A stretch of 64,000 bases of DNA from Eubacteriales bacterium (lineage in GTDB: Bacteria > Bacillota > Clostridia > Christensenellales > CAG-138): positions 25,868 to 89,867 of the forward strand of contig JAJFTI010000002.1 of the NCBI GenBank assembly GCA_021373115.1, written 5' to 3'. Shown in pieces: positions 36,169 to 56,780 of the stretch. Position 1 is the first letter of the stretch, and every line of letters starts with the position of its first letter. The notes beneath the pieces were generated by a model. That model saw nothing but the letters and a program-made list of their open reading frames with translations, did no database searches and was not told where the DNA came from. The position numbers and the translations under genes are program-made.

Positions 36169-36906
36169 TCAGATATCGAGACGATATCCTTGGAACATAT
36201 GCTCCGAAACAAGCTTGGTGCCGACGCTAAAGGAAGCGCTTACAGCGCCTAAGGCTTCTGCGGGATTTTTGTCTTCGATTGCCTGAACCAAACGTTCCAG
36301 ATATCCCAAGCATTCGGTGCGGTCCATGTTGGTATAGTAGCATTCGTTTACCTGGGAAAGAATATTGATAAACGAGTAGAAAATCAACGGAGTAATAACG
36401 TTGCAGGACGCCACGCATACCGTGTGATGCAACTCAAAGTCGATGGCCGCCATGGCGCGTGGATCGGTTTCCAGCTTTAACTGATTCAGAAGGCTCTTCA
36501 ATGCCTCCACATCGTCATCCGAACGATTCAAGGCGGCCTGTTCGGCGGCTTCCTTTTCGATCATCGTACGCATATCCGTCAGGGACCGAAACATCGTCGG
36601 GTTGAGATGGCCGCCGTTATAGTTGATGATAGACAACAGCGTATCCAGCTTGCCGATTCGTTTATAATCCGCAACAAAAGTACCCTTTCGCGGAACGACA
36701 CATAAAAAGCCTTTGGCTTCCATATCGGCTAATCCGCCGTTCACGATTGCGCGGCTGACCTTCATCTTTTTTGAAAGCTCACGTTCGGTGGGCAACTTTT
36801 CGCCTACGGACAGCTTTCCCGAGATGATGAGCGCTTCAATTTCTTTGACAAACAGTTCTCTTACCCTCGGAACATGCAATTCTGAGAGCTCTTCTTCGAT
36901 CCTCAT
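36169..36906 (-). CDS. GntR family transcriptional regulator (FadR/FCD subfamily)
   Basis: Winged HTH ..GKLSVGEKLPTERELSKKMKVSRAIVNGGLADMEAKGFL.. plus an all-helical FCD-like C-terminal domain. GGAGG RBS. Confidence 0.9.
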   Translation of the reverse strand: MRIEEELSELHVPRVRELFVKEIEALIISGKLSVGEKLPTERELSKKMKVSRAIVNGGLADMEAKGFLCVVPRKGTFVADYKRIGKLDTLLSIINYNGGHLNPTMFRSLTDMRTMIEKEAAEQAALNRSDDDVEALKSLLNQLKLETDPRAMAAIDFELHHTVCVASCNVITPLIFYSFINILSQVNECYYTNMDRTECLGYLERLVQAIEDKNPAEALGAVSASFSVGTKLVSEHMFQGYRLDI

Positions 36907-37000
36907 AATATAGTGCCTCCGCCTCGATTAACAGCGCGAATGGAATATCCTTTCATTATTTTAGCATGAATAATCGTCGAAACGCAACAGACCGTGGACA

Positions 37001-37012
37001 GTGGTATACCAC
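37001..37012. promoter_or_regulatory. Candidate GntR operator 1, perfect palindrome GTGGTATACCAC
   Basis: 12-bp perfect dyad of the GT-N-AC type expected for FadR-like GntR regulators. Sits just upstream of the putative gntR promoter (TTGCGT, 18 nt, TAAAAT on the minus strand, 36958-36987). Confidence 0.6.
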
Positions 37013-37082
37013 GGAGCAACACGCTGTTCGAGTAATCGTACTAATACCTGCAATATAAAGAAAAAGGGCAAAAAAATCTTTT

Positions 37083-37092
37083 TGGTATACCA
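37083..37092. promoter_or_regulatory. Candidate GntR operator 2, TGGTATACCA
   Basis: Second exact copy of the 10-bp core (TGGTATACCAC shared), 22 nt upstream of the -35 box of the plus-strand operon. Confidence 0.55.
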
Positions 37093-37113
37093 CAAACCAT
37101 GAGCATTTTTTTG

Positions 37114-37142
37114 TTGACAACATGTGACCGGCATTGTAAGAT
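37114..37142 (+). promoter_or_regulatory. Promoter of the methyltransferase operon
   Basis: TTGACA, 17 nt, TAAGAT. Leaves a leader of about 240 nt before ATG 37391. Confidence 0.5.
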
Positions 37143-37390: not shown

Positions 37391-38740
37391 ATGACGGGAA
37401 AGGAACTGGTCATAGCCGCGTTTCAGCATGCCGATACCCCGAGGGCGCCCTGGGTGCCGTTTGCGGGGATCCATGCCGGCAAACTGAAAGGGTATAACGC
37501 ACAGGAGCTTTTGACCGATGGAGAAAAGCTGGTCGAGTCCCTGCGGGAAGTGCATCGGCTGTATGTGCCCGACGGCATGCCGATTGTGTTTGACCTGCAG
37601 TTGGAAGCCGAGATTCTTGGCTGCGATCTCATGTGGTCCGAAAACAACCCGCCTTCCGTGACCAGCCACCCGCTGGCAAATCAGGACGAAATGCCGGATA
37701 AATTCGTCGAGAAAACGGACGGGCGCGTGCCTTTGATTCTGGACGCCTGCCGGAAAATGAAAGCAGAATTCGGAGACAAAACGGCTTTATACGGATTATT
37801 CTGCGGGCCGTTCACGCTGGCGTCCCACCTCGCGGGCACCAGGCTGTTCAAGGACATGAAGAAAAATCCGGAATACGTTCACAAAATCATGGATTACTGC
37901 ACGAAGAACGCGCTTCGGATGATCGACTATTACGCAGAGACCGGAATGGATATCGTCGCGCCGGTTGATCCGCTGGTAAGCCAGATCAGCCCCAAAGCAT
38001 TCGAGGAATATTTAGCGGGACCATATTCGGAATTATTCAAGCATATCCGCGAAAAGGGATTACATTCCAGCTTCTTTGTCTGCGGCAACGCGCTGCCCAA
38101 TATTGAGAACATGTGCAAGACCAATCCGGACGGGATTTCGATTGACGAGAACATACCGATGGCGACGGCAAAAGAAATCACCGACCGCTACAATCTGGCG
38201 ATCGGCGGCAATATTCCGCTGACCACCACGATGCTTTTCGGCAATCAGCAGGACAACATGAAGTTTGTGGTGGATATGGTTGGCAGCGTTGCGCGCAAAA
38301 ACCTGATCGTTTCGCCCGGCTGCGACATGCCGTATGATGTGCCGCTGGAGAATGTCATTGCGGTGGCGGAAGCGGTGCGGGACATCGATAAATACCGCGA
38401 ACTGCTGAAGAATTACGAGAGCGCCGGAGTTGGAGCCGATGTGGAACTGCCGGACTATGCGAACGCGGTTCGGCCGTATGTGGAGGCCTATACCCTGGAC
38501 AGCGCCAGCTGCGCTGCCTGTACCTATATGTGGGCCGTCGTGAACGACGCCAAGGATCACTTCGGAGACAGAATCGAAATTGCGGAGTATAAGTATACAA
38601 CCAAGGACGGCATTGCGCGCAGCAAAAAGTTGGGGGTTGCGAATCTGCCCAGCGTTTATATCAACGGAGAGCTGGCCTATGCGTCCGTCATCCCCAACCA
38701 GGAAGAATTCTTCAGGAAAATTGAAAGCTACATAAAATAG
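37391..38740 (+). CDS. URO-D/MtaA-MtbA family methyltransferase fused to a C-terminal thioredoxin-like (CxxC) domain
   Basis: The N-terminal ~360 aa resemble uroporphyrinogen-decarboxylase-family corrinoid methyltransferases (..PWVPFAGIHAGKL.., ..FFVCGNA.., ..VSPGCDMPYDVP..). The C-terminal ~90 aa carry CAAC and ..LPSVYINGELAYASVIPNQEEF... GGAGG lies 7 nt before ATG 37391. Confidence 0.75.
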   Translation: MTGKELVIAAFQHADTPRAPWVPFAGIHAGKLKGYNAQELLTDGEKLVESLREVHRLYVPDGMPIVFDLQLEAEILGCDLMWSENNPPSVTSHPLANQDEMPDKFVEKTDGRVPLILDACRKMKAEFGDKTALYGLFCGPFTLASHLAGTRLFKDMKKNPEYVHKIMDYCTKNALRMIDYYAETGMDIVAPVDPLVSQISPKAFEEYLAGPYSELFKHIREKGLHSSFFVCGNALPNIENMCKTNPDGISIDENIPMATAKEITDRYNLAIGGNIPLTTTMLFGNQQDNMKFVVDMVGSVARKNLIVSPGCDMPYDVPLENVIAVAEAVRDIDKYRELLKNYESAGVGADVELPDYANAVRPYVEAYTLDSASCAACTYMWAVVNDAKDHFGDRIEIAEYKYTTKDGIARSKKLGVANLPSVYINGELAYASVIPNQEEFFRKIESYIK

Positions 38741-38821
38741 CGGATTCATCCAACGTACAAAAGATAACTTTTCGAAATGAATCAGGCAGGGGCCTATAAT
38801 AACTTAAGGAGCGAAAATGGT

Positions 38822-39520
38822 ATGGCGAAAGAAGAAATCCTGAAACGAATTGCGAAACTCGTTGCGGAAGGCGACGAGGAGGAAGCAGTTCAAGCGGTCA
38901 AGGAAGGCTTTGCCGCAGGGCTGGATCCCCTTGTGATCCTGAACGAAGGCGCGGCCAAGGGCATGGACATCGTTAGCGAGCAGTATTCTGCCGGTGAAGC
39001 TTATTTACCGGAACTGGTACTCTCGGGAGACACGATGAGCGCGGTGATCGAAGTGATTTTTGCAAACATGAGCAAGGAACAGGCGGCGGCCTCCAAACAG
39101 GGTGTAATCGTCATTGGCCAGGCAAAGGGCGACGTGCATGATATCGGCAAAAACGTTGTCGCAGCACTGCTGTCGGTCAACGGCTTTGAAGTACACGATT
39201 TGGGAATTGACGTGACAGTGAAGTCTTTCTATGACAAAGCGCAGGAAGTTGGGGCGGATATTGTTGCCATTTCCACACTTTTAACGACGTCTTTGCCGTA
39301 CCTGGAGGATACCGCGCGGTATCTGACGGATACCAATACGCGGAATAAATATCAGCTTATCGTCGGCGGCGGCCCCGTCACGCCGGAATTCGCGAAAAAG
39401 ATTGGTGCGGACGGCTGGGCACGCAACGCGTTTGACTGTGTTGAACTGTGCCGGAAGCTGGTTGCGAAGGGAAATCCCGGCGCGGGCTCCACGATGATCG
39501 TAGATTCCGAAGCGGTTTAA
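38822..39520 (+). CDS. Cobalamin-binding corrinoid protein (methyltransferase cognate)
   Basis: Helical cap domain (..YSAGEAYLPELVLSGDTM..) and B12-binding domain with DxHxxG (GDVHDIGKN), AISTLLTTS and IVGGGPVT. Confidence 0.9.
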   Translation: MAKEEILKRIAKLVAEGDEEEAVQAVKEGFAAGLDPLVILNEGAAKGMDIVSEQYSAGEAYLPELVLSGDTMSAVIEVIFANMSKEQAAASKQGVIVIGQAKGDVHDIGKNVVAALLSVNGFEVHDLGIDVTVKSFYDKAQEVGADIVAISTLLTTSLPYLEDTARYLTDTNTRNKYQLIVGGGPVTPEFAKKIGADGWARNAFDCVELCRKLVAKGNPGAGSTMIVDSEAV

Positions 39521-39531
39521 GGAGAGAGACA

Positions 39532-40977
39532 ATGTATAACTATAAAGTACAAAGATTGCTCAACAACCTGGATAAGGCCTACATCGGGCCGGTTCTGCCC
39601 ATGAAGGAATGGGACACAAAGATCATACCCCAAACCATTAAAGCCATCCTGAAAAAGCATGGACTGATGGGAACGCTGGATATGGAGAACCCCATCAACT
39701 GCGATGACGATCTGGCGGATGCGTTCTTCAAGGCCGGCTGGGAACTGGCGCTTGAGCTGGGCATGTACTGCGAAGATACGGAGCGCGTCATCAAGATTAC
39801 CGAAGACGAATTGCTGGAGTGCATCCGGGACTATCAAGCGGTCAATATCCTTGGCGAAGGACAGGATCAGGTCATCATGAAGCCGCGCCGTCCGGAAGAT
39901 CCCTATCAGCCGCTCGTTGCGGCGAGTCTGGGAATCGTATGCTCGGAAGAAAACTATCTCCCCTTGGTGCAGGGGATCGTCAAGTATCCAAAGCTGGTGG
40001 ACGTCCTGCACGGACCGACGCTGGCAACGGTATTCGGACGGACGTTCCGCTCGGGCACGCCGTACGAAACACTGATGGGAAACTATGAGTCGCACCTGAA
40101 GAAGGAAGCGCTGTGGCGCGCGGGTCGTCCCGGAATGGCCTGCACGGGCGTTGCGGGCGCGGTTACGGAATACGGCCATTTGGGCGGCGCGCCGGAGCTG
40201 GCGGGACGCGGAAACGTTACGATGTCCCTTTGCCCGGTTGAGCTCAAGTGCACGTTCTCCAACTTCCATCGAATCATGCAGGGCCTGAACTACGGGCATA
40301 AGCTGCGTGTTGGCGCGTTCTCCTATATTGGCGGTTATGCGGGTCCTGCGGAAGGCGCGGCGCTTGCCTGCGTTGCAAACGACCTTCTGATTCCGACGAT
40401 TCTGCAGAGCGACTATACGAGCTCCTATGTGTATGACATTCAGCTCTTTGGCAACTGCGGCCGCAAGGCTGTTTGGGCCAACAGCGTTTCGATTCAGGCC
40501 ATCAGCCGGAATACGGGATTCATGCGCAACAAGATCGTAAACGAGACGGGTGGTCCGTGCACGGAGATGTTCATGTACGAAGCGGCGGTGGGACTGATGA
40601 ACCACAGCGTATCCGGCGCAAGCAAAACGACGCAGCCGCGCAGCGCGGGCGGACGGTATACGGATTACATTACGCCGGTCGAGTGCTGGTGGAGCGGCGA
40701 TGTGTTCAAGTCCTGTGCCGGTATGACACGCAAGGACGCGAACGAGATCGCGAAAAAGATACTGCCGAAGTACGAAGAGAAACTCGGCGCACCTGACAAA
40801 GGCCTGCCCATCAGCGAATGCTTTGACCTTGTGAAGCAGCAGCCGAAGGACAACTACATTGAGCTGTTCAACCGCGTGCGCAATGAACTCATCGACCTCG
40901 GCATGCCGCTGGATAAGGCTTTTGGCGAAACCTACATGGGAAAAGTCTCCAACGGACGCAGGACGATCGTTCTGTAA
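39532..40977 (+). CDS. Monomethylamine methyltransferase (MtmB) family homologue lacking pyrrolysine
   Basis: By-eye alignment to remembered M. barkeri MtmB: KAGWELALELGMYCEDTERVIKITEDEL, AGRPGM, GGYAGP, GGPCTEMFMYEAA and the C-terminal ECFDL..LIDLGMPL. ORF is uninterrupted with no in-frame TAG. AAGGAG lies 7 nt before ATG 39532. Confidence 0.75.
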   Translation: MYNYKVQRLLNNLDKAYIGPVLPMKEWDTKIIPQTIKAILKKHGLMGTLDMENPINCDDDLADAFFKAGWELALELGMYCEDTERVIKITEDELLECIRDYQAVNILGEGQDQVIMKPRRPEDPYQPLVAASLGIVCSEENYLPLVQGIVKYPKLVDVLHGPTLATVFGRTFRSGTPYETLMGNYESHLKKEALWRAGRPGMACTGVAGAVTEYGHLGGAPELAGRGNVTMSLCPVELKCTFSNFHRIMQGLNYGHKLRVGAFSYIGGYAGPAEGAALACVANDLLIPTILQSDYTSSYVYDIQLFGNCGRKAVWANSVSIQAISRNTGFMRNKIVNETGGPCTEMFMYEAAVGLMNHSVSGASKTTQPRSAGGRYTDYITPVECWWSGDVFKSCAGMTRKDANEIAKKILPKYEEKLGAPDKGLPISECFDLVKQQPKDNYIELFNRVRNELIDLGMPLDKAFGETYMGKVSNGRRTIVL

Positions 40978-41010
40978 AAACCGCTCACCGAGTCTTGAAA
41001 ACAAAACAGA

Positions 41011-41038
41011 GCAGCCGGGACCGTATGGTCCCGGCTGC
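41011..41038 (+). promoter_or_regulatory. Strong intercistronic stem-loop
   Basis: Perfect 12-bp GC-rich stem GCAGCCGGGACC/GGTCCCGGCTGC with loop GTAT and no U-tract. Confidence 0.6.
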
Positions 41039-41068
41039 CAGCCCGGATAAAACGGAAAGCGCAGCAAA

Positions 41069-42208
41069 ATGGAGCAGGCAGCCCCCATCCGGCTCTACCT
41101 GATTAACGGGTTCTTAGGGTCCGGGAAAACTACATTTATGCGAGCATTGATCGATTCGTTCCAAGGCACGCGCTTGGGTGTGCTGGTGAACGAATTTGGA
41201 AGCATTGGGATCGATGGCACGCTGGTTCAAAAAGAAGGCATCCGTTTGGTTGAAGTCAATCGCGGGTCCATCTTTTGTGCCTGCATTAAAGACGGGTTTA
41301 TTCGTACGCTGAAGGCGTTTTCGCAGCAGCCGATTGACACGCTTCTCATCGAGAGTTCGGGAATGGCCGATCCGGCCGGTATGGCGAAGATTCTGGAAGG
41401 GCTGGCAAGCCATCTCGACCGGAAATTCCAATACGCAGGCAGCATATGCCTTGTGGACTGCACCAGCTTTGCGGATTATGCGGATATTCTGATGCCGCTC
41501 CAGAATCAAGTTGCCAGCGCAGATTTCATCATCGTCAACAAGCTGGACCTTGTGAACGCGGAACAACTGGAAGAGGTTCACAAACTCATACGCCATTTCA
41601 ATTCGGATGCGCCCGTTTACGACACGGCATATGCGCAAGTCCCCCAGTCTGTTCTGCAAAACGACCTGAGAAACCGCGGGTATATCGGGGAAGGGACAAA
41701 TGCGCCGTATAACCGTCCGAACACATACACCCTGCTGTCGGACGCGAAATTGACCGAGGAGCAGCTGCGCCGGTTTTGCGAACTGCTTTCGGGAAAAGTT
41801 TTCCGGTATAAAGGGTTTTTACGCAGCACCGAAAAGGGATTTTGGCATGTGGAGGGAGTAGGAGAACACTACTCGATCGAACCGGCATCGTTCCGCGACG
41901 GCGTACCCCCGCAGAACGGCCGTATTGTATGCATTGCATTTGACAACAGCCGCATTGCTGCGGAGGTGGAATCGGCATGGTCTGCATCCGTTCCGGAATA
42001 CGCGCAGAAGAAAACAACCCTGGAACAAGCGGCACCGATGGTTAAAAAACCCGGTATAACCGCTTCCGTAAAGCTGCGCACCAATGCTGTTCCACAAAGA
42101 AACGCTTGCCCGCCACGTCTGAGGGCGCCTCGTGACGAATCACGGACAGCGGCCTGCGGCGGTTCCGGCCATGACCGCGCAATGGACAAAGACGAAAAAC
42201 CAGGCTGA
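41069..42208 (+). CDS. CobW/COG0523 (G3E family) GTPase metallochaperone-like protein
   Basis: P-loop GFLGSGKTT, ESSGMADP, VNKLD and a CobW_C-like domain (..KGFLRSTEKGFWHVEGVGEHYSIEP..). Ends in an unusual tail of about 65 aa. Confidence 0.8.
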   Translation: MEQAAPIRLYLINGFLGSGKTTFMRALIDSFQGTRLGVLVNEFGSIGIDGTLVQKEGIRLVEVNRGSIFCACIKDGFIRTLKAFSQQPIDTLLIESSGMADPAGMAKILEGLASHLDRKFQYAGSICLVDCTSFADYADILMPLQNQVASADFIIVNKLDLVNAEQLEEVHKLIRHFNSDAPVYDTAYAQVPQSVLQNDLRNRGYIGEGTNAPYNRPNTYTLLSDAKLTEEQLRRFCELLSGKVFRYKGFLRSTEKGFWHVEGVGEHYSIEPASFRDGVPPQNGRIVCIAFDNSRIAAEVESAWSASVPEYAQKKTTLEQAAPMVKKPGITASVKLRTNAVPQRNACPPRLRAPRDESRTAACGGSGHDRAMDKDEKPG

Positions 42209-42517
42209 GACGGCATCCGTGCGGAACCAAGCTGCTTTGCGAAACACGCAAGGTGCGCAATTCGGGTTCCGTGCCCCGCCGGACAAAGCGTTTTGATAAA
42301 GCGATATCGGTATAGTTACGAATGTATAAAGGAAGATCGCTCCACAGGATCGCTCGTTGTAACCTGAAAATTGAATAGTATGCCGGGGTTCAATCTCCGG
42401 TTTCCCCAAAATGCTATGACTCTGAAGCGCCTGATGGGGAAGGCGCCCCTCGAATTTGGTAACACGACGTAGAGACCCAGCGAGATGGTATTTACGGAGG
42501 CAGGAGGAAGCATCATA

Positions 42518-45168: not shown

Positions 45169-46100
45169 TGGATTGGATCGTATCCGTTGTTGCGGCGACG
45201 ATTGGGTATGCCGCTCCGGTTCTTTACGCCAGCCTTGGTGAAATCATTTCGGAGCGCGCGGGCGTCCTGAATCTGGGTCTTGAAGGCGTTATGCTCATTG
45301 GCGCCGTCACGGGCTATATTACAGCAGTAGAGAGCGGATCTTTGGCGCTGGCCATTTTGGCGACGATGTTGGCCGGGATGCTAACAGGTCTGGTATACGC
45401 CGTTCTGACCGTTACTCTGCAGACCAATCAGGTGGTCAGCGGACTGGCGCTGGTGACCGTTGGCACCGGTCTGTCGGGATTCTTTGGCAAACCCTATACG
45501 GCGGTAACCGGTTTGGAAGGGTTTAAGAATCTCGCGATCCCCGGCTTATCCCAGATACCGGTATTGGGGCCGATGCTTTTTAAGCAGAACGTAATGGTTT
45601 ATGCCCTCTATATTTTAGTGCCTTTGATCTACGTGTTTCTCTACAAAACACGTCCGGGGCTGAAGCTCAGGGCGCTGGGTGAAAACCCTGGCGCGCTGGA
45701 TGCCGCAGGGATGAACGTATTCGGCATGCGCTACTTATATGTCATTCTGGGGAATGCGATTGTTGCGCTCGGCGGCGCGTATTTCACGCTGGCGTACATC
45801 CCGGGCTGGCAGGATTCGATTACGGCCGGCAAAGGATGGATCGCCGCGGCGTTGGTGATCTTCTCCTCCTGGAATCCGGCAATGGCCACGGTTGGCGCGC
45901 TGATCTTTGGCGGCGTAGAGGTGCTGGGGCTGCGGCTGCAGGTGTTGTTTCCCAACATCGGCATTCCGACCTACTTCATCAGCATGCTGCCCTATGTGGC
46001 TACGGTTCTTGTGCTGATCCTCTCAACCGGCAGCTTCCGTAAGCACCGTAAGCCCGGACCGGCCGCGCTGGGAGCCTTTTACGACCGCGAGGCGCGCTGA
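45168..46100 (+). CDS. ABC transporter permease
   Basis: Polytopic. Its ATG overlaps the previous TAA (TAATG). Confidence 0.85.
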   Translation: MDWIVSVVAATIGYAAPVLYASLGEIISERAGVLNLGLEGVMLIGAVTGYITAVESGSLALAILATMLAGMLTGLVYAVLTVTLQTNQVVSGLALVTVGTGLSGFFGKPYTAVTGLEGFKNLAIPGLSQIPVLGPMLFKQNVMVYALYILVPLIYVFLYKTRPGLKLRALGENPGALDAAGMNVFGMRYLYVILGNAIVALGGAYFTLAYIPGWQDSITAGKGWIAAALVIFSSWNPAMATVGALIFGGVEVLGLRLQVLFPNIGIPTYFISMLPYVATVLVLILSTGSFRKHRKPGPAALGAFYDREAR

Positions 46101-47378: not shown

Positions 47379-47406
47379 AAGAACGGTTTCATAATCGAGC
47401 AGAAGA

Positions 47407-47438: not shown

Positions 47439-47460
47439 CCATGAAGGAGGAAAAACTGAT

Positions 47461-48870: not shown

Positions 48871-48948
48871 ATAACGGTAGGGTGGGGATTTATATCCCCG
48901 CCCTGCTCTGATAAAGCAGATAACAGTATACCCTTTGAGGTGGTATGA

Positions 48949-51225
48949 ATGAAAAAATATAACGTAGTCGGCAAGAGCGTACCCCGTATTGACGCTTGGG
49001 CGAAAGCGACCGGCGCGGCGAAATATGTCGGCGACATGCAGCGACCGGACATGCTTCACGCGAAAATACTGCACAGTCCGCTGGCGCATGCCTGGATCAG
49101 GCGCATCGACGTAAGCCGTGCTGCCGCCCTGCCCGGAGTGCGCGCGGTGATTACATATATGGATGTACCGCAGATCCCCTTTACCACTTGCGGGCATCCT
49201 TATCCGTTTGATACGCCGAAGGACAGTCTGATTCTATCCCGGCATCTTCGCTATGTTGGCGATCCTGTGGCTGCGGTTGCGGCGGATACGCAGGAGATCG
49301 CTTTGGATGCGCTGGAATTGATCGAGGTGGAATACGAGGAACTGCCCGCCTATTTTACGATTGACGCGGCATTGGCGGAAGGCGCGGTGGAACTGCACGA
49401 GGGGCTGAAGAATCTGGCGGGCGAAAGCGAGTTCGAAATAGGAGACGTAGAAGGCGCCATGGCGCAGGCCGACTTCATTATTGAGGATACCGTCGAGACG
49501 CCCATTGTGACCCATAGCCCCATTGAGCCGCATGTTTCTCTCGTTGAACTGGACGAGCAGGGGCGGCTGGTGTGCTATTTCTCCACGCAGGTTCCCAGCA
49601 TCATGCGCGAGCGTTTAGCGTATGCCCTCGGCATGCGGATGGGGCAGATCCGGGTTGTCAAGGGTCACGTTGGCGGTGGTTTCGGCGGCAAACAGGAGCC
49701 GATTTTTGAACCCATTAACGCTGTCCTTACCATGAAAACCGGGAAACCCGTGCGATTGGAACTCACGCGTGAAGAGTGCCTTGCCTGCACGCGCACGCGG
49801 CATTCCGCACGAATTCATATGCGCACCGGCTTGACGCGGGACGGGAAAATGCTGGCCCGTATCATGGACATTGACCAGAACACCGGCGCTTATTCTTCCC
49901 ACGGGCATAACGTGGTATTTGCGATTGCGATGGCTTTTGCTACGTTGTATCCAACGCCGAACCTGCGATTCCACGGCAGAAGCGTTTATACCAATATTCC
50001 AATTGCCGGTGCCATGCGCGCGTACGGCTGTCCCCAGTATGCCTTTGCCATGGAATCCCATGTGGAGCATATGGCTCGCGAACTGGGGATCGATTCCCTG
50101 GAGTTCCGGCGAAAAAACAGTTATCATTTGGGAGACCCAATCAATTTTCCGCATGTTTCCGTGAGCACCTGCGGCCTGCAGGATGCGATTGATCAATGCG
50201 AAGAGGCGATCGGCTATCAGGCTTTCCTCAAGGAGCCGCGAAGCGACGGAACGAGCAAGCGCGGCATCGGTACGGCGCTGTTCAGCTATGGTCAGAGCTG
50301 CTATCCGCACAGCGTGGAGCTTTCCGGCGCGCGCGTGCGCGTAAACGAGGACGCGACCGCCACGCTCTACATCGGCTGCGCGGAGATCGGGCAGGGTACG
50401 GATACGGTTATGCTGCAGATTGCGGCGGAGGCCTCGGGAATCCCGCTTGCAGACATAAACCTTGTGGCGGTAGACACCGATTCCTGTCCCTTTGATCCGG
50501 GCGCGTATGCCTCCCGTCAAACGTATGTGGCGGGGCATGCGGTGAAAAAAGCGGCCGCGGCATGCAAGGAACAAATCCTGCGCTATGCGGTCAACAAACT
50601 TTCGGTGAACTACGAGCGGCTGGATGCGGCGGACGGCTGGATCATCGACCGCGATACGGATCAACGCATGGTTTCCCTGAAGGAAATCACCATGCAAATG
50701 TATTACGACTGCCATACGCCGGTGACGATTTGCCAGGAAGAATCATTCGCGCCCACGGACAATATGCTGACATTCGGCGTTTCCATGGCCATTGTGAAGG
50801 TGGATACGGCCACCGGAAAAGTCGAGGTGGAGAAACTGGTTACCGCGATAGACTCCGGGCGCATTATCAACCCGCAGCTCGCAATGGGGCAGCTCAACGG
50901 CGGCAATATCATGAGCCTGGGATATGGCCTTTCCGAGCAGCTCTTAATCGATCCGAAAAGCGGCCGCGTCCTGAACGACAACCTGCTCGATTATAAGGTG
51001 CCAACGTTTGCGGACGTACCGCCGATTGAGGGATACTTTATCGAAACCGACGAGCCTTCCAGTGCCTACGGAAATAAGTCTCTGGGTGAGCCGCCGAACA
51101 TAGCTCCGGCAGTGGCGGTGCGCAATGCCGTTCTGGACGCTACGGGCGTAGCCATAAACCAGGGCCCCTTAACTCCGGAACGGGTGTATCTTGCGCTGAA
51201 GGCTGCAAAAGAGCAGGAGGTATGA
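48949..51225 (+). CDS. Xanthine dehydrogenase family molybdopterin-binding large subunit
   Basis: 758 aa. N-terminal a/b-hammerhead part (VGKSVPRIDAWAKATGAAKYVGD), GGGFGGK, and the C-terminal active-site region GNKSLGEPP. Confidence 0.9.
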   Translation: MKKYNVVGKSVPRIDAWAKATGAAKYVGDMQRPDMLHAKILHSPLAHAWIRRIDVSRAAALPGVRAVITYMDVPQIPFTTCGHPYPFDTPKDSLILSRHLRYVGDPVAAVAADTQEIALDALELIEVEYEELPAYFTIDAALAEGAVELHEGLKNLAGESEFEIGDVEGAMAQADFIIEDTVETPIVTHSPIEPHVSLVELDEQGRLVCYFSTQVPSIMRERLAYALGMRMGQIRVVKGHVGGGFGGKQEPIFEPINAVLTMKTGKPVRLELTREECLACTRTRHSARIHMRTGLTRDGKMLARIMDIDQNTGAYSSHGHNVVFAIAMAFATLYPTPNLRFHGRSVYTNIPIAGAMRAYGCPQYAFAMESHVEHMARELGIDSLEFRRKNSYHLGDPINFPHVSVSTCGLQDAIDQCEEAIGYQAFLKEPRSDGTSKRGIGTALFSYGQSCYPHSVELSGARVRVNEDATATLYIGCAEIGQGTDTVMLQIAAEASGIPLADINLVAVDTDSCPFDPGAYASRQTYVAGHAVKKAAAACKEQILRYAVNKLSVNYERLDAADGWIIDRDTDQRMVSLKEITMQMYYDCHTPVTICQEESFAPTDNMLTFGVSMAIVKVDTATGKVEVEKLVTAIDSGRIINPQLAMGQLNGGNIMSLGYGLSEQLLIDPKSGRVLNDNLLDYKVPTFADVPPIEGYFIETDEPSSAYGNKSLGEPPNIAPAVAVRNAVLDATGVAINQGPLTPERVYLALKAAKEQEV

Positions 51226-51226
51226 C

Positions 51227-52102
51227 ATGTATTTCGTAAAGAAATTATACCTGCCGGAAACGCTGCCCGAAGCGTTGAAGATACTCAAAGAGCATCCGGA
51301 AACGACAATTCTTGCCGGCGGAACGGATGTATTGGTGAAAATGCGTCATAAGCGCATGCGGGACGTAACGTTGCTCTCCTTGGCCAAACTGCCGCTGTCC
51401 GGCGTTGAGGACAAGGGGGATGAGATCGTCATTGGCCCGGGAACCACCTTTACCGCACTCGCCGAGAACCCGATCATGCAAACCCGGCTTCCAATGCTGT
51501 GTACGGCTGCACGATCGATGGGCGGGCCGCAGATTCAGAACGTCGCTACCATTGGTGGCAACGTCTGCAACGGCGCTACATCGGCGGACAGCGCGCCGTC
51601 GCTGTTCGCTCTGGATGCGGTGCTTACGCTTACCAGCGCGGGCGGAGACCGCCGCGTACCAATTCGTGAATTCTATACCGGCCCGGGCCGGGTAAAGCTG
51701 GAAAGCGGAGAGATGCTCACGGCCATCCATATCCCCGCAGGAGAGCAGGCGCGCTGGGGTGGGGTCTATATCAAGTTTTCCACACGCAAGGCTATGGACA
51801 TCGCAATTTTGGGCAGCGCCGCGGTTTGCGAACTCGGCGAAGACGGACGCGTAATAAAGGCTGCCATCGCCATGGGCGTTGCCGCGCCTACGCCGGTGCG
51901 CTGCACGGACGCGGAGGCGCTGCTTACCGGTAAAACACCGACGGCGGAGCTGCTGCAGGAGGCAGGACGGCTTGCGTTAACAGCCTGCAGCCCCAGAAGC
52001 TCCTGGCGCGCGACAAAAGAATACCGGGAGGCGCTGATTCAGGAACTGTCCGTTCGGGCGTTTCAGGAAGCCTATCGCCTGGCAGGAGGGAAAGCGCTAT
52101 GA
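51227..52102 (+). CDS. Xanthine dehydrogenase family FAD-binding medium subunit
   Basis: AGGTDVLV.. and IGGNVCNGATSADS motifs of CoxM/XdhB-type FAD subunits. Starts 2 nt after the large subunit. Confidence 0.85.
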   Translation: MYFVKKLYLPETLPEALKILKEHPETTILAGGTDVLVKMRHKRMRDVTLLSLAKLPLSGVEDKGDEIVIGPGTTFTALAENPIMQTRLPMLCTAARSMGGPQIQNVATIGGNVCNGATSADSAPSLFALDAVLTLTSAGGDRRVPIREFYTGPGRVKLESGEMLTAIHIPAGEQARWGGVYIKFSTRKAMDIAILGSAAVCELGEDGRVIKAAIAMGVAAPTPVRCTDAEALLTGKTPTAELLQEAGRLALTACSPRSSWRATKEYREALIQELSVRAFQEAYRLAGGKAL

Positions 52103-52569
52103 TTGAAATCAAATGTACCGTTAACGGCAAGCCGACGCAGGTGCGCATAGAGGAAGGGGAAACGCTGCTCGATATGATTCGGGAACGCCTTGGCCTCACC
52201 GGAACCAAGCGCGGCTGCGAGGTTGGAGAATGCGGCGCATGCACCGTTTTACTGGACGGCGTGCCCACGGACTCCTGCCTGATGCTGGCGGCGCTGGCGG
52301 ACGGAAAGGATATCCTGACCATAGAAGGGATATCCAGCGGCAGGGAACTCTCCGTCATGCAGCAGGCGTTTGTGGACGAAGGCGCAATCCAGTGCGGTTA
52401 TTGCACGCCTGGAATGATACTGACCGCCCACGCCTTGCTGAAGAAGAATAAAAACCCCACGGCGGAGGACATCAAACGGGAACTGGCGGGGAATATGTGC
52501 CGCTGCGCCGCCTATAATCAGATCATCAACGCCGTGCAGAAAGCCGCCCGGGAAGAAAACAAAGACTGA
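52099..52569 (+). CDS. Xanthine dehydrogenase family [2Fe-2S] small subunit
   Basis: GCEVGECGACTV and CGYCTPG..NMCRC motifs. Overlaps the previous stop. Confidence 0.9.
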   Translation: MIEIKCTVNGKPTQVRIEEGETLLDMIRERLGLTGTKRGCEVGECGACTVLLDGVPTDSCLMLAALADGKDILTIEGISSGRELSVMQQAFVDEGAIQCGYCTPGMILTAHALLKKNKNPTAEDIKRELAGNMCRCAAYNQIINAVQKAAREENKD

Positions 52570-52595
52570 GCAACCTTTAAAAGGAAAAGAACGAT

Positions 52596-53963
52596 ATGCA
52601 AAAAATACTGATTCAAAATGCCGACGCGATCATCACCTGCGATAAAAACGACCGTCTGCTCAAGGGCTGCGACATCCGGATAGAGGATAACCGGATTGCC
52701 GCCATCGGGCAAAACCTGCCCGCGGAGGGTGCGGAGATCATTGACGGAAGAGGCCGTTTCGTATATCCGGGACTTGTTAACACCCATCACCACCTGCTGC
52801 AGGCGTTCAGCCGCAACATTCCGGCTATCCAGAGTTCGGAGCTGTTCGACTGGCTGCTGTATCTATACAACGTATGGTGCAACGTGAATCCGGATTATAT
52901 TTACTACAGTTCCATGGTAGCCATGGGCGAATTCGTCAAATTTGGCGGCACCACGATGTTCGACCATCACTTCGCGTTTCCCAGAAGCTCGAAAAAAGAG
53001 ATCATCGACCGTGAGTTCGACGCGGCGGCGGAGCTGGGAGTCCGGTTCCACGCAGGCCGCAGTTCCTTTACGCGGGGCAAATCCAAGGGCGGGTTGCCGC
53101 CGGAGGAGCTCATCGAGACCACGGAAGAAACGCTTGTGGACAGCGAACGTCTGATCGACAAATATCATGATCCCAGGGAGTTCTCCATGCGGCAGGTGGC
53201 GGTTGCGCCCTGCTCGCCTTTCTCGGTGGATACCGACGTGATGGTGGAATCCGTCAAGCTGGCGCGCCGGCGCGGCGTACGGCTGCATACGCATCTGGCT
53301 GAAACCATGGACGAAGAGCGTTACTGTCTGGAAGTCTACGGCAGGCGCCCGCTTGATTGGGCGGAGGACTGCGGCTTTATCGGTTCGGATGTATGGTATG
53401 CGCATGGCATCCACTTTACGGACGAGGAAGTGGCTCGCCTGGCAAAGACAAAAACCGGCGTGTCCCACAACCCCGTTTCCAATATGAAGCTCTCCAGCGG
53501 CGTTTGCAAGGTACCGCTCATGCTGGAATTGGGCGTTCCGGTGGGGTTGGCGGTGGATGGCTGCGGCAGCAACGATGCCTCGAACCTGCTCAATGAAATC
53601 CGTATTGCCTATTTGCTGCACCGGCTGAATTCCGGCAACAAAGCACCCACGGGCTACGGCATCCTGAAGCTGGCGACTTGCGGCAGCGCGGAACTGCTGG
53701 GCCGCAGCGACATCGGCAGCCTGGAAGTTGGCAAAGCCGCGGACTTGTTCATGATCAACGTGGATCTTCTGGACTGCGTCGGCGCGGTGATGGATCCCAT
53801 GTCGTTTCTCGGTACCGTCGGCTATACGCGGCCGGTGGAACTTACAATGGTCAACGGCAAGGTCGTGTGGAAAGACGGCCGCCTGCAGGGAATCGACGAG
53901 GACAAGATCAAGGTGGCGGCAAGGGCAGAGGTGAAAAAGGTCTACGATAAAATTGAGGGCTGA
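52596..53963 (+). CDS. Amidohydrolase-superfamily deaminase (COG0402), paralogue 2
   Basis: Collinear with 47461..48870 over its whole length (PGLVNTHHHLLQAFSR, HTHLAE, WYAHGIHF, GLAVDG). By eye roughly half the residues are identical. Confidence 0.85.
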   Translation: MQKILIQNADAIITCDKNDRLLKGCDIRIEDNRIAAIGQNLPAEGAEIIDGRGRFVYPGLVNTHHHLLQAFSRNIPAIQSSELFDWLLYLYNVWCNVNPDYIYYSSMVAMGEFVKFGGTTMFDHHFAFPRSSKKEIIDREFDAAAELGVRFHAGRSSFTRGKSKGGLPPEELIETTEETLVDSERLIDKYHDPREFSMRQVAVAPCSPFSVDTDVMVESVKLARRRGVRLHTHLAETMDEERYCLEVYGRRPLDWAEDCGFIGSDVWYAHGIHFTDEEVARLAKTKTGVSHNPVSNMKLSSGVCKVPLMLELGVPVGLAVDGCGSNDASNLLNEIRIAYLLHRLNSGNKAPTGYGILKLATCGSAELLGRSDIGSLEVGKAADLFMINVDLLDCVGAVMDPMSFLGTVGYTRPVELTMVNGKVVWKDGRLQGIDEDKIKVAARAEVKKVYDKIEG

Positions 53964-53994
53964 AGCGGGGAATCCGATAAGGAGTCGATCTAAG

Positions 53995-54366
53995 ATGCGG
54001 CATTTTTCATACGCTGCGGCCTTTATCGCGCCGTTTGGCGTTTATACCGACGACTTGATCCGAACGACCGCGCGCAGTTTCCGCGAAGGGCTGGACGGGC
54101 AGGCGAATGCCTTTGCGAATTTGGAATTTCGTGCCGAATCGGAGGAAGGCGTGGCGCTGCTGCGCTGCGACGGCTCGGACGGGGTTTTGAAGGTGGAGCA
54201 GGAGGTCGGCCTCTACAGCCTGCATGGCACGATACGCGTCAGCATGGAAGCAGAGTCGCCCGACCGCGCCAAGGCGGCTCTGGTGCGCGCTTTCGAGCAG
54301 GTAACTGCGGAAAAGGGCGCTACCATTCTGGAGCAATCGTTCGGAATGGATGACACGAAGAAATAA
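53995..54366 (+). CDS. Hypothetical small protein (123 aa)
   Basis: AAGGAG lies 10 nt before ATG 53995. Host-like composition, no recognised motif. Coding status inferred only from context. Confidence 0.45.
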   Translation: MRHFSYAAAFIAPFGVYTDDLIRTTARSFREGLDGQANAFANLEFRAESEEGVALLRCDGSDGVLKVEQEVGLYSLHGTIRVSMEAESPDRAKAALVRAFEQVTAEKGATILEQSFGMDDTKK

Positions 54367-54488
54367 AGCGCGCAACCGAACAAATTATATCCCATGCAGA
54401 CGGGCGGCCCTGAAGGATCCCGCTGATGAATGGACACCTTCCATAGCACTTTTCTTACAGGGCGGCTTTCGATCCGGGGGGCGAAACA

Positions 54489-56057
54489 ATGCAAGTGATA
54501 ACGGTATATGAAAATGGTACAGCCCGCCAAATCGAAGGAACAATCGGTGAGTCGCTGCACCGCGCGCTCCTGGCAGAAGGAGGGGAGGTGGATTCGCCTT
54601 GCGGCGGGAACCAGAAATGCGGGAAATGTGTTGTAAAAGCCGAGGGTGCGTTGTCCGAAATGAACAGCGAGGAGCGCCGCTTGCTCGGCAGCCGCGCGGA
54701 TTCGTTTCGGCTTGCCTGCTTCGCCACTGTACTTGGGGATTGCAGCGTTACGATCCTGCCGAAGGCGGCGTTGAAGGTCGTTACGGATTATCAGCCGTGC
54801 GACGCGGGGGGAGAAACCGTTTATTCCGAAGGCTTTGGCGCGGCAATCGATATTGGAACAACCACGATTGCCGCATACCTGTTTTCCCCGCAGACGAAAG
54901 AACCGCTGGCCTCTGCCGGCGAGTATAATCATCAGCAAAAGTACGGTGCGGACGTGATCACACGGATTGCTTATTCCAAAGAGCACGGCGTCGGCGTTCT
55001 ATGCGATACGATTCTTCATCAGCTTTCCGATATGCTCAAGGGTCTCTGCCGGGAGGCCGGCGTTTCTGCGCAAGAGCTCAGAACGCTGGTCATCACCGGA
55101 AATACGACGATGCTGCACTTCTATGCGGGGCTATATGCTTATCCAATCGCGATTGCGCCGTATACGCCCGCGAGTCTGTTCGGCGACTGGTATCCATCGT
55201 TGATCCCCGAATTTGAGCATGCTTCGATTTATTTACCACCGTGTATTTCCGCTTATGTAGGCGCCGATATTACATGCGGCGCTTTAGCGAGCAATCTGGC
55301 GGAGCGTGGCGGAAATTGGATGCTGATCGACGTTGGCACAAACGGAGAAATGATGCTGAAAGCCCGGGATATGCTCGCCTGCTGTTCCACGGCGGCGGGG
55401 CCGGCTTTTGAAGGCGCGGGCATCTCCTGCGGCAGCGGCGCGGTTCCGGGTGCAATCGACAAGGTGACGCTCTGCGAGGATAAGGTTCTGTATTCGACGA
55501 TTGGCGGCGGGGCGGCGAAAACGCTGTGCGGTTCCGGCTTGATTGACGCCGCAGCTATATACTTGAATCTGGAAGCGATCAATCGAAACGGAAAGCTGAA
55601 GGAAGGGAAGAGCCTGAACATAGGCGATTCGCGCGTTACGCTGACGCAAATGGACATCCGACAGCTCCAGCTGGCCAAGAGCGCCATACGTGCCGGAATT
55701 GATACGCTGCTGCACGAATGCGGCATTGAATATGAGCATTTGGACGGAATTCTGCTATGCGGCGGATTTGGCAGTTATCTCAATCCCTGCTCCGCCGGAA
55801 CAATCGGCCTGATTCCGCAGGAATGGGTCGCGAAAACCAGCGCGATCGGCAATGCGGCCGGACAAGGCGCCGCGATGATTCTGCAAAGCAAAACCGCTCT
55901 TAAAAAGGCACACCAAATCGCCGAAAAAGCCGTAACGGTGGAATTATCGACAAACAGATTCTTTTTGGACCGATTTATGGAACGGATGGCGTTTGGGGAA
56001 GAGATCCTTTCGCCGGGGCGCCGCGCTTCGAAAACGGCGCCAGATCGAAACGGATAA
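54489..56057 (+). CDS. Corrinoid reductive activase (RACo/RamA-like; [2Fe-2S] ferredoxin + ASKHA/DUF4445 ATPase)
   Basis: N-terminal plant-type ferredoxin motif PCGGNQKCGKCVV...LAC. ASKHA-like phosphate motifs AAIDIGTTTIAAYL and LIDVGTNGEM. Architecture matches COG3894 activators. Confidence 0.8.
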   Translation: MQVITVYENGTARQIEGTIGESLHRALLAEGGEVDSPCGGNQKCGKCVVKAEGALSEMNSEERRLLGSRADSFRLACFATVLGDCSVTILPKAALKVVTDYQPCDAGGETVYSEGFGAAIDIGTTTIAAYLFSPQTKEPLASAGEYNHQQKYGADVITRIAYSKEHGVGVLCDTILHQLSDMLKGLCREAGVSAQELRTLVITGNTTMLHFYAGLYAYPIAIAPYTPASLFGDWYPSLIPEFEHASIYLPPCISAYVGADITCGALASNLAERGGNWMLIDVGTNGEMMLKARDMLACCSTAAGPAFEGAGISCGSGAVPGAIDKVTLCEDKVLYSTIGGGAAKTLCGSGLIDAAAIYLNLEAINRNGKLKEGKSLNIGDSRVTLTQMDIRQLQLAKSAIRAGIDTLLHECGIEYEHLDGILLCGGFGSYLNPCSAGTIGLIPQEWVAKTSAIGNAAGQGAAMILQSKTALKKAHQIAEKAVTVELSTNRFFLDRFMERMAFGEEILSPGRRASKTAPDRNG

Positions 56058-56147
56058 CGTTGCCATGCTCAGCCGATTCAGCTTGTCAAAGAGGGCCTAT
56101 ACCGTCCGGCAGTGTGCCGCGTCAGAAGGATACCGGAAGAAGGAAAT

Positions 56148-56780
56148 ATGAGCGAAGTTGTAGTTGCATGCTCCATGCTGGAGAACGAAATCAATCATAT
56201 CCTTCAAGCTGAAAATCTGCATTACGAGATACATTGGGTGGAGCGCGGCCTGCATCAGTCGCCGGAACTGCTCAACCGGGAACTGCAGAAAATTATCGGC
56301 TCGCTCGAAAAAAACTTCGATACGATCCTGCTCTGCTACGGCCTTTGCGGAAACGCGCTGCGCAATCTTCATTCGACAAGCGCCCGTATCGTCGCGATGC
56401 GCGTGGACGACTGTATCCAGATGCTGCTCAAGGGCGGCGAGAAGGACTGCCGCTGCGTCTATTTGACCGCCGGGTGGATCGACTCGGATAAATCGCTGGA
56501 AAACGAGCGCGCCGCCTTTGCGGCAAAGCACGGCGAAGCAAAATGCCGCCGCGTTTACAAGACCATCTTTAAGGAATACAGGGGGTTAAAACTGCTGGAT
56601 ACCGGCGCATACGATGTGGAACGATATCGGGAGCGGACAAAATCGCTCGCCGATACGTTGGAGCTGGAATACGGCGAGCAGACCGGGTCTGCCGAAGTGC
56701 TGCGCAAACTGCTCATACACGACTGGGACAAGGATATCGTTATCGCCGAGCCTGGTGAACCGTTGCGGTTCGATGGGTAA
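56148..56780 (+). CDS. DUF1638 domain protein
   Basis: VVACSMLENEI.., ..HQSPELLNRELQKII.. and ILLCYGLCGNAL fit my recollection of DUF1638, a family usually found next to corrinoid methyltransferase genes. Confidence 0.7.
   Translation: MSEVVVACSMLENEINHILQAENLHYEIHWVERGLHQSPELLNRELQKIIGSLEKNFDTILLCYGLCGNALRNLHSTSARIVAMRVDDCIQMLLKGGEKDCRCVYLTAGWIDSDKSLENERAAFAAKHGEAKCRRVYKTIFKEYRGLKLLDTGAYDVERYRERTKSLADTLELEYGEQTGSAEVLRKLLIHDWDKDIVIAEPGEPLRFDG

Follow-up and report, generated by a model that had tools for sequence, protein, structure and literature searches.

Why should a bacterium place genes for the import, oxidation and deamination of purines inside a corrinoid-dependent methyltransferase system? 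The question is raised by a gene cluster at positions 36169-56780 of a 64,000-nucleotide stretch of DNA from an Eubacteriales bacterium (GenBank assembly GCA_021373115.1, contig JAJFTI010000002.1), which was analysed as a whole and is referred to below as the window. Sixteen genes on the plus strand (37391-56780) lie 3' of a divergent GntR/FCD regulator (36169-36906); they encode a homologue of the methylamine methyltransferase MtmB with its corrinoid protein (CoP), an ATP-binding cassette (ABC) importer, two amidohydrolases (Amido1 and Amido2), a three-subunit enzyme of the xanthine dehydrogenase (XDH) family, and accessory proteins of corrinoid metabolism. Genes of the same two kinds stand together, in many different orders, in other bacteria and in an archaeon, and on the strength of this comparison of sequences we consider it very probable that the methyltransferase and purine modules are functionally linked. 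We further propose, with moderate confidence, that the locus would provide a catabolic route for an N-methylated purine base by direct corrinoid-dependent demethylation.

Gene content of the locus

Pfam and NCBIfam profile scans of the open reading frames (ORFs) of the window gave the families listed below. An initial annotation had named families for all 16 genes and for the regulator, and the profiles agree with it throughout, the MtmB (39532..40977) and RACo (54489..56057) assignments included; two intergenic gaps to which it drew attention are likewise in place, 276 nt at 42209-42484 and 122 nt at 54367-54488.

36169-36906, minus strand: GntR + FCD (FadR-type) regulator, divergent (PF00392 + PF07729)
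37391-38740, plus strand: URO-D/MtaA-like methyltransferase with a C-terminal thioredoxin-fold domain (PF01208, 184 bits)
38777-39520, plus strand: CoP, cap and B12-binding domains (PF02607 + PF02310; MtgC/pyl_corrinoid-like)
39532-40977, plus strand: MtmB-family methyltransferase without pyrrolysine (PF05369, 237 bits)
41069-42208, plus strand: COG0523 (CobW-family) GTPase, putative metallochaperone (PF02492 + PF07683)
42485-44080, plus strand: double ATPase of the ABC importer (Pfam)
44077-45168 and 45168-46100, plus strand: two permeases of the ABC importer (Pfam, 2x BPD_transp_2)
46173-47378, plus strand: BMP-family substrate-binding lipoprotein (PF02608)
47413-48870, plus strand: Amido1, 8-oxoguanine-deaminase-like amidohydrolase, COG0402 (PF01979; NF006055, 480 bits)
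48949-51225, plus strand: XdhA (equivalog NF043082, 886 bits, cutoff 780)
51227-52102, plus strand: XDH FAD subunit (PF00941/PF03450)
52099-52569, plus strand: XDH 2Fe-2S subunit (PF00111/PF01799)
52596-53963, plus strand: Amido2, 8-oxoguanine-deaminase-like amidohydrolase (Amidohydro_1; NF006055, 523 bits)
53995-54366, plus strand: small conserved protein of 123 aa (no Pfam/NCBIfam match)
54489-56057, plus strand: RACo/AcsV-type ATP-dependent reductive activase (PF17651 + PF14574; NF040756, 320 bits)
56112-56780, plus strand: DUF1638 protein (PF07796, 125 bits)

Linkage of methyltransferase and purine genes in other genomes

One genome per species was scanned, which gave 24 loci (numbered L001 onwards) encoding MtmB-like proteins 79-95% identical to that of the window; their neighbours were read by tblastn with all 17 window proteins and by Pfam scans of unlabelled neighbours. 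Three of the loci are too short to judge. XDH subunits and/or amidohydrolases of the Amido1/2 type lie within 10 kb in 18 of the 21 informative loci, and a nucleobase gene of any kind stands beside the CoP - MtmB-like pair in 20 of them. L007 adds only a BMP-type ABC system, just after which the locus ends, and L020 has a xanthine/uracil permease directly downstream of CoP - MtmB-like, with no amidohydrolase within 10 kb.

The 18 linked loci display at least eight different gene orders. The window and L001 share the order CoP - MtmB - ABC - Amido1 - XDH, while L002 and L003 have CoP - MtmB - RACo - DUF1638 - Xan_ur_permease - XDH - amidohydrolase, and L004 and L010 have CoP - MtmB - URO-D - Amido2 - PucR - XDH; the XDH genes lie upstream, and the ABC and amidohydrolase genes downstream, in L009, L013, L014 and L017, and L021 carries XDH on the opposite strand. 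Among the hosts are Oscillospiraceae, Sporobacter, termite-gut Treponema/Spirochaetaceae, Hungateiclostridiaceae, Clostridiaceae and Lachnospiraceae. PucR purine-catabolism regulators (L004, L021, L022), Xan_ur_permease (L002, L020) and an NCS1 purine/cytosine permease (L024) also occur; the transporters at these loci are BMP-ABC, NCS2 or NCS1 systems used interchangeably, all of nucleobase type, and a transporter for any other substrate is absent from them. Linkage that outlasts such extensive reshuffling is a classical signature of a functional connection. In L001 the stretch upstream of CoP - MtmB-like (2149-8522) encodes ADP-ribosylglycohydrolase-family, PfkB kinase, PNP_UDP_1 nucleoside phosphorylase-family and SIS-domain proteins and an MFS transporter, which may hint at nucleoside use there too.

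The purine-gene neighbourhood recurs in all six of the more distant MtmB-like homologues examined (47-70% identity; L025-L030). The nearest of these, 70% identical, is from Candidatus Formimonas warabiya (L025; CP017634, 1857153-1878553), where the first half of the locus reads NCS1 permease - CoP - MtmB-like - MtrH - adenine deaminase - PucR and the second half CoP - MtmB-like - Pterin_bind - (MCP) - Xan_ur_permease - Amido2 orthologue (69%) - NCS1 permease. L026 (61%) is bordered by genes for an adenine deaminase and other amidohydrolases and by three XDH-like genes. L027 (55%) has the order XDH - amidohydrolase - PucR - URO-D - CoP - MtmB-like, its URO-D protein (458 aa) being 56% identical to that of the window. 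The MtmB-like gene of L028 (51%), from the same metagenome-assembled genome (MAG) as L001, has a PucR regulator gene on one side and a Bmp protein gene on the other, and that of L029, from Chloroflexi (48%), stands beside two amidohydrolases and XDH. In L030, an archaeal, Candidatus Hecatella-like contig (47%), two tandem MtmB-like genes (10001-12788) lie between PALP enzymes and are surrounded by genes for a Bmp-ABC importer, XDH, and YgfK-like, PreA-like, carbamate kinase, DHOase-like and OTCase proteins. The initial annotation had held that the purine genes belong with the corrinoid system and are not merely adjacent to it, and had named unlinked modules in relatives as the contrary outcome; linkage across reshuffled loci, in 18 of 21 close and six of six distant cases, supports its claim.

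In the metaproteome of Candidatus Formimonas, the MtmB-superfamily protein Ga0180325_111810, which lacks pyrrolysine, showed the largest rise in dichloromethane-grown relative to glycine-betaine-grown cells (PMC9768040). Its gene number is compatible with L025, which may be where it is encoded.

An MtmB homologue without pyrrolysine and its corrinoid protein

The MtmB-like protein of the window gives a full-length alignment to M. barkeri MtmB1 (1L2Q; E-value 8.5e-47, residues 13-458), in which the pyrrolysine (Pyl202) of MtmB1 is matched by threonine (GMACTG versus GMGVXG). The reading frame is uninterrupted by any in-frame stop, so this is not a pyrrolysine-dependent MtmB, as the initial annotation had recognised. 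The residue in the Pyl column varies within the clade (T, V, I, C, A and N among others). A neighbour-joining tree places the distant homologues, together with the second paralogues of L008, L015, L020, L024 and L025, in one clade without Pyl, apart from M. barkeri MtmB1.

The CoP, which bears the DVHDIG His-on motif at residue 119, is encoded 11 nt before the MtmB-like gene. All 24 genome loci, as well as L025-L027 and L029, have a CoP gene immediately 5' of the MtmB-like gene; in L028 and L030 no such neighbour was found. Several genomes have two or three paralogous CoP - MtmB-like pairs per locus. Of the parts of a three-component corrinoid system, the window holds a member of a substrate:corrinoid methyltransferase (MT1) family, a cognate CoP with DxHxxG, and a RamA/RACo-type activase. 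From its family and neighbours, the product of 39532-40977 is predicted to be an MT1 for a methylated purine base.

Importer and purine-type enzymes

The nearest structure to the binding protein of the window is guanine-bound AtzT (6PI5; E-value 5.6e-54), followed by Brucella 3S99, in which adenine was modelled (PMC6834077); this probably places it in the subgroup for free purine bases and not with the nucleoside-binding PnrA type. AtzT co-purifies with guanine (dissociation constant, KD, 110 nM) and binds adenine at 2.5 µM and pyrimidines at a KD of 620 µM or more; hydroxyatrazine and ammeline are also bound (PMC6834077). In its pocket a Tyr45/Trp194 sandwich and Ser97, Glu165, Asn218 and Asn220 satisfy all heteroatoms of guanine (PMC6834077). 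The window protein keeps the stacking pair (Trp/Trp) and Ser97, and has Ser for Glu165, His for Asn218 and Ser for Asn220. Its fold and type of pocket are probably those of AtzT and 3S99, and its ligand is probably different: a pocket short of one carboxylate and lined by small residues fits a purine with an extra substituent, altered at one hydrogen-bonding position. Serine at the Glu165 position is found in the window protein and in 12 of 12 other binding proteins encoded beside MtmB-like genes; Glu165 is retained in the binding proteins of L044 and L045, which are XDH/amidohydrolase loci without the methyltransferase, and in the opposite-strand copy of L008. Genes for Ser-bearing BMP proteins were seen in the window, L001, L005, L006, L009, L013-L017, L036 and L037, and the residue at this position (Ser or Glu) could serve as a sequence marker of ligand class.

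Amido1 and Amido2 are 56% identical and share the HxH / HxHLAE / VDG deaminase motifs. Both match 3HPA and 7WW2 with E-values from 1e-99 to 1e-116 (8e-109 and 7e-116 against 3HPA for Amido1 and Amido2), and both score only 178-187 bits on the ring-opening SsnA profile (NF005540, cutoff 444). They appear to be close relatives of the 8-oxoguanine deaminase family that lie below its curated membership score (NCBIfam NF006055 '8-oxoguanine deaminase', cutoff 532 bits). The nearest characterised relatives of Amido2 are 8-oxoguanine and isocytosine deaminases (3HPA, 7WW2; E-value about 1e-115), a type that acts on the 2-amino-4-oxopyrimidine edge of guanine-like rings; Amido1 is predicted to be a purine 2-amino deaminase. 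Because the alignment between the two opens at Met17 of Amido1 (MMKILIKN), the Amido1 gene may start at 47461 and not at 47413. The oxidoreductase is of the XdhABC type, with three subunits, an XdhA above its equivalog cutoff, and the catalytic-Glu motif LGEPP; XdhA also has the motif GGGFGGK followed by Q-E.

The Amido2 type is the enzymatic partner most constant beside the MtmB-like gene, with relatives of 64-78% identity in 11 loci (L004, L008, L010, L011, L013-L015, L021, L022, L025 and L026, where it is a split gene). None of the loci with roughly 8 kb or more of flank (L040, L042-L045) that encode Amido2 homologues at or below 49% identity has an MtmB-like gene in its vicinity. This reverse comparison drew on metagenome contigs, and most close matches lie on contigs too short to show neighbours.

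The URO-D fusion, the methyl acceptor and maintenance proteins

The first gene of the operon most likely starts at ATG 37391, with 37364 as the alternative. Its URO-D protein has MtaA (4AY7) as its closest PDB match and scores 148 bits, below cutoff, on TIGR01463 (mtaA_cmuA); its C-terminal 85 or so residues (38480-38740), which the initial annotation had missed, form a thioredoxin-fold domain with a CAAC motif that matches thioredoxin-like 1NHO. The FFVCGN, PGCD and CAAC motifs are invariant across eight URO-D orthologues. We found no published description of an MtaA-like/thioredoxin-fold fusion; orthologues of it occur in L004, L010, L015, L018, L021, L024 and L027, and the tail weakly resembles the NCBIfam 'HUIPC motif thioredoxin-like (seleno)protein'.

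Domain scans detected neither Pterin_bind nor MtrH in any scanned ORF of the window, in keeping with the earlier statement that it has no pterin-binding methyltransferase. URO-D orthologues of 54-71% identity adjoin CoP - MtmB-like in at least eight loci, often with the COG0523 gene next to them, and the fusion holds the place that a Pterin_bind or MtrH gene takes in Candidatus Formimonas. The fusion is the natural candidate for the methylcorrinoid:acceptor methyltransferase (MT2), or alternatively could be a second MT1, as in bacteria the URO-D superfamily provides O-demethylases and chloromethane dehalogenase with their MT1 (PMC13222342). The place held by the fusion narrows the question of the methyl acceptor, which the initial annotation had left open.

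The remaining accessory genes fit corrinoid maintenance. RACo has an N-terminal 2Fe-2S ferredoxin domain with a Cys38/44/47/77 pattern, and fitness genetics in Phaeobacter has linked DUF1638 with RamA-like activases in the reactivation of corrinoid proteins (PMC5764234). In the COG0523 GTPase the Walker A motif is intact, FCACI stands where the canonical metal-binding motif CxCC would be expected, and the C-terminal tail is long and of low complexity; the gene for this GTPase adjoins the URO-D gene in L004, L010, L018, L021, L022 and L024. For the small gene, ATG 53995 is the most likely start (123 aa), with AAGGAG upstream and coding-type GC at the three codon positions (GC1/2/3). It is a real gene, an identical protein being annotated in the 'Eubacteriales bacterium' MAG GCA_039683475.1. 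The protein has four homologues (65-84% identity) in a narrow lineage, and in L031 it occupies the same position, between amidohydrolase and RACo genes. Its model has a ferredoxin-like alpha+beta fold (pLDDT 77), for which a fold search returned only generic likeness to ferredoxin-like or M20-dimerisation domains at TM scores of 0.6 or below.

Regulation and surroundings of the cluster

The perfect palindrome TGGTATACCAC occurs twice in the divergent promoter region between the GntR gene and the operon, at 37001-37012 and 37082-37093, 81 bp apart, and next to it lies a promoter-like TTGACA-17-TAAGAT (37114-37142). TGGTATACCAC is present only there in the 64 kb window, and 0 of 100 shuffles reach four matches; the two copies are plausible candidates for GntR operators. 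Between the MtmB-like and COG0523 genes lies a strong 13-bp GC-rich hairpin (41010-41039), preceded on the plus strand by an A-rich run and followed by no clear T-tract. It could stabilise the mRNA or act as an attenuator, and so give the methyltransferase genes an expression different from that of the rest. Promoter and terminator scans of the window gave counts no higher than in shuffles and so argue neither for nor against co-transcription. A search of the window against Rfam, both at the gathering threshold and at E<=1, returned no riboswitch or other known RNA, so that RNA gives no hint of the ligand here. In L011 (8786-8974 and 6103-6283) and L020 (8903-9081), the CoP - MtmB-like pair has cobalamin riboswitch aptamers (97-120 bits) directly upstream. 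A B12 riboswitch ahead of genes that require B12, as opposed to genes for its synthesis or uptake, is unusual, and might be an ON switch.

The neighbours of the cluster, which include sugar-type ABC systems, LacI/AraC/IclR regulators, peptidases and a two-component system, are unrelated to it. Its borders are low in GC (41-48% at 34000-36000 and 56800-59500, compared with 52-58% within the cluster) and contain ORFs without a Pfam match (34221-34712, 57541-59181 and 59488-60396), which fits a mobile or recently acquired block.

Discussion

A model for the use of methylated purines

The domain identities, the lack of pyrrolysine and the conserved linkage of the genes are established by the comparisons above. 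For the direction in which the methyl group flows, the direct attack on the purine, the order of demethylation, deamination and hydroxylation, and the acceptor, we infer the following model. The BMP-type ABC importer would take up a free purine base, from which the MtmB-like MT1 would move an N-methyl group onto the Co(I) form of the adjacent CoP. From the resulting methyl-Co(III) CoP an MT2, most likely the URO-D/thioredoxin-fold fusion, would pass the methyl group on to an acceptor that could be tetrahydrofolate or a thiol, while RACo, DUF1638 and probably the COG0523 GTPase would keep the corrinoid and metal sites active. Through deamination and hydroxylation, Amido1, Amido2 and XdhABC would take the ring towards xanthine or urate, both usable by general pathways of anaerobic purine breakdown, and the GntR regulator would control the operon from the two palindromic sites.

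The substrate class is most likely the methylguanines. Any single named compound is doubtful, and 7-methylguanine, the best single guess, is offered tentatively. The presence of deaminases makes amino-purines (methylguanines and methyladenines) at least as likely as methylxanthines, and methyladenines and methylxanthines are alternatives that are possibly served by paralogous MtmB-like enzymes in other genomes. Adenine-deaminase-family genes that accompany other paralogues (L025, L026), together with the multiple CoP - MtmB-like pairs, suggest different bases or methyl positions. MtqB, discussed below, demethylates N-methyl cations, a type of catalysis that fits N-methyl heteroaromatics; by analogy, N-methylpurines, protonated or as imide-type nitrogens, would be comparably good leaving groups. 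Whether the large MtmB clade without Pyl, mostly bacterial and extending to Chloroflexi and archaea, consists of methylpurine:corrinoid methyltransferases appears to us an evenly balanced question.

Alternative explanations

The descent of the enzyme from MtmB invites a second route, also put forward in the initial annotation, in which an amidohydrolase would free methylamine from N6-methyladenine or N2-methylguanine, giving the oxo-purine, and the MtmB-like enzyme would then demethylate the methylamine. COG0402/COG1001 relatives do release alkylamines, as the triazine hydrolases among the PDB matches illustrate, E. coli Add is reported to act on N6-methyladenosine (PMC13296781), MtqB has slight monomethylamine activity (PMC13044021), and adenine-deaminase-family genes adjoin MtmB-like genes in L025 and L026. 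The methylamine-activating Pyl is, however, replaced by Thr at a position that is not conserved in the clade, L020 pairs CoP - MtmB-like with a nucleobase permease in the absence of an amidohydrolase within 10 kb, and Candidatus Formimonas, which has two systems of this kind, reportedly does not grow on methylamine (PMC9768040). On these grounds we regard prior release of methylamine as unlikely and favour direct N-demethylation of a purine, one part of the broader first hypothesis of the initial annotation, which had covered imported methylated purines, xanthines, pterins and pyridines. PucR regulators, adenine deaminase and a binding protein of the purine-base type render pterins and pyridines less likely than purines. 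A system otherwise unchanged but directed at another methylated N-heterocycle (a pterin or lumazine, 3-methylcytosine, N4-methylcytosine or a triazine) would account for isoxanthopterin deaminase (2PAJ) and triazine hydrolases among the amidohydrolase matches, for the binding of hydroxyatrazine and ammeline by AtzT, and for permeases of the NCS1/NCS2 families, which carry pyrimidines too. We give it little credence, given the frequency of PucR, the adjacent Adenine_deam_C-type deaminases, an XdhA above its equivalog cutoff, and a binding protein whose nearest structures bind guanine or adenine, and pyrimidines only at a KD of 620 µM or more.

Direct attack on the intact methylpurine also has to be weighed against demethylation late in the route, with XDH and the amidohydrolases processing or opening the ring first and the MtmB-like enzyme acting on a methylurate or a methylated ureide or urea. 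Gene neighbourhoods give no order of steps, N-methylated rings could be substrates of 8-oxoguanine-type deaminases and of XDH, and L030 sets two MtmB-like genes among genes for ring reduction and ring opening; yet L018, L020 and L028 have the methyltransferase alone, or with a transporter or regulator only, in the absence of ring-processing enzymes, and the amidohydrolases carry the HxHxxE deaminase signature and are less like the ring-opening SsnA, so that we think late demethylation improbable. A further alternative is that the modules are independent, an unrelated methylotrophy operon and a purine operon that are co-located, for example for co-regulated scavenging of nitrogen or carbon. It would be compatible with the 276-nt gap at 42.2-42.5 kb, with the hairpin that precedes it, and with L018, and is very unlikely in the face of a linkage kept through reshuffled orders and across phyla and domains, of activase and DUF1638 genes that lie beyond the purine genes in the window, and of nucleobase-type transporters, to the exclusion of others, throughout these loci.

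Several observations nevertheless weigh against the demethylation model as a whole or against parts of it. The substrate is deduced from gene neighbours alone. L018 is the sole informative locus that has the methyltransferase system and no purine genes within about 8-10 kb, and, as many of the loci come from related MAGs, the comparison comprises roughly 8-12 independent architectures and not 30. The XDH partners in other genomes have diverged (26-66% identity), which leaves room for differences in ring chemistry from one lineage to another, and both amidohydrolases fall slightly short of the 532-bit cutoff (480 bits for Amido1, 523 bits for Amido2). The role of the URO-D fusion as MT2 is called into question by the change of the His of the MtaA HxC zinc motif to Phe (FFVCGN) in the fusion and all its orthologues, and since URO-D enzymes can be MT1 the fusion may instead work on the side of the substrate, as a second enzyme using the same CoP. 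The URO-D and COG0523 genes are, moreover, missing from the locus of the closest relative, L001, which indicates that the MT2 is not a fixed part of the system.

Relation to known systems

The closest precedent is MtqB of Methanococcoides methylutens, which demethylates tetramethylammonium and choline and is the first MtmB homologue without Pyl to have a demonstrated function; the functions of this group otherwise 'have remained elusive' (PMC13044021). MtqB/MtqC and the window pair are alike in belonging to the same family, in having the cognate CoP adjacent, and in taking a methyl group from nitrogen, as is presumed for the window. MtqB is archaeal, feeds coenzyme M through MtbA for methanogenesis and acts on aliphatic quaternary amines, with no purine genes reported, whereas the clade of the window is mainly bacterial and embedded in genes of purine uptake and catabolism, a comparison made by description. 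The same logic of MT1, CoP, MT2 and RamA/RACo underlies the MttB-superfamily systems of Desulfitobacterium hafniense and Eubacterium limosum for glycine betaine (MtgB), carnitine (MtcB) and proline betaine (MtpB), in which a Pyl-free homologue of a methylamine methyltransferase was recruited to a new N-methyl substrate and the methyl group passes to tetrahydrofolate. These differ from the window in using MttB and not MtmB, in acting on aliphatic betaines, in having no ring-degradation module, and in employing a pterin-binding MT2 in place of the URO-D/thioredoxin-fold fusion. The window thus appears to combine a standard corrinoid methyltransferase architecture with a predicted new class of substrate, coupled to catabolism of the purine ring.

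The role that we propose has an aerobic counterpart in the NdmABCDE Rieske N-demethylases of Pseudomonas putida CBB5, which degrade caffeine, theobromine and theophylline in an oxygen-dependent manner and release formaldehyde. They remove N-methyl groups stepwise from purine alkaloids so that xanthine dehydrogenase can handle the ring, and their position-specific paralogues are echoed by the MtmB-like paralogues of L008, L015, L020, L024 and L025; the Ndm enzymes are not known to be related in sequence or cofactor to the window proteins. A hydrolytic counterpart is E. coli Add, which like Amido1 and Amido2 belongs to the amidohydrolase superfamily, and which deals with methylated purines from nucleic-acid turnover, as is proposed for the window; its route is reported to lose the methyl carbon as methylamine, involves no corrinoid and does not conserve the methyl group (PMC13296781).

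Strict anaerobes of gut and digester also have a 2,8-dioxopurine pathway, described in gut anaerobes with XdhAC/DOPDH, YgfK, SsnA, HyuA, YgeW, YgeY, as well as YgeX (bioRxiv 10.1101/2025.04.24.650524). It shares with the window XDH-family molybdoenzymes and COG0402 amidohydrolases, has no corrinoid methyltransferase, and differs in that the window amidohydrolases are deaminase-like and not SsnA-like. We considered whether the window is itself such a cluster and rejected this, as XDH-family and COG0402 proteins are all that it has in common with one, with no YgfK-, hydantoinase-, carbamoyltransferase- or YgeX/Y-type domains. Xanthine or urate formed by the window enzymes would probably drain into this pathway, and L030 joins MtmB-like genes with YgfK-, PreA-, carbamate-kinase- and OTCase-like genes of the 2,8-dioxopurine type. 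Our search, outside which most subscription journals lie, found no paper that joins MtmB or corrinoid proteins with purines, XDH or methylpurines, and the view that no such pathway has been described holds to that extent.

Implications

MtqB aside, MtmB homologues without Pyl are an orphan family, for which this locus and its relatives give a concrete prediction of function that can be tested, with a binding protein, MT1, CoP and activase as defined proteins for reconstitution. For the disposal of methylated purines the known routes are oxygen-dependent (the Rieske Ndm enzymes) or hydrolytic. Anaerobic N-demethylation of caffeine has been detected in sediment by isotope work and attributed to methanogenic archaea, with no enzyme identified (bioRxiv 10.64898/2026.01.06.697959), and systems of the kind described here might offer microbes a means of demethylating caffeine- or theobromine-type compounds anaerobically.

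If our proposal is correct, N-methyl heteroaromatic bases would be a new class of substrate for corrinoid methyltransferases, and their demethylation a new entry point into anaerobic purine degradation. 7-Methylguanine and methyladenines, set free as RNA and DNA turn over, would in that case serve as substrates for methylotrophy in guts, termite hindguts, digesters and sediments, and the same might hold for methylxanthines from the diet. C1 metabolism would receive the methyl groups in the absence of oxygen, and anaerobic purine fermentation the rings, with paralogous enzymes providing specificity for position or base.

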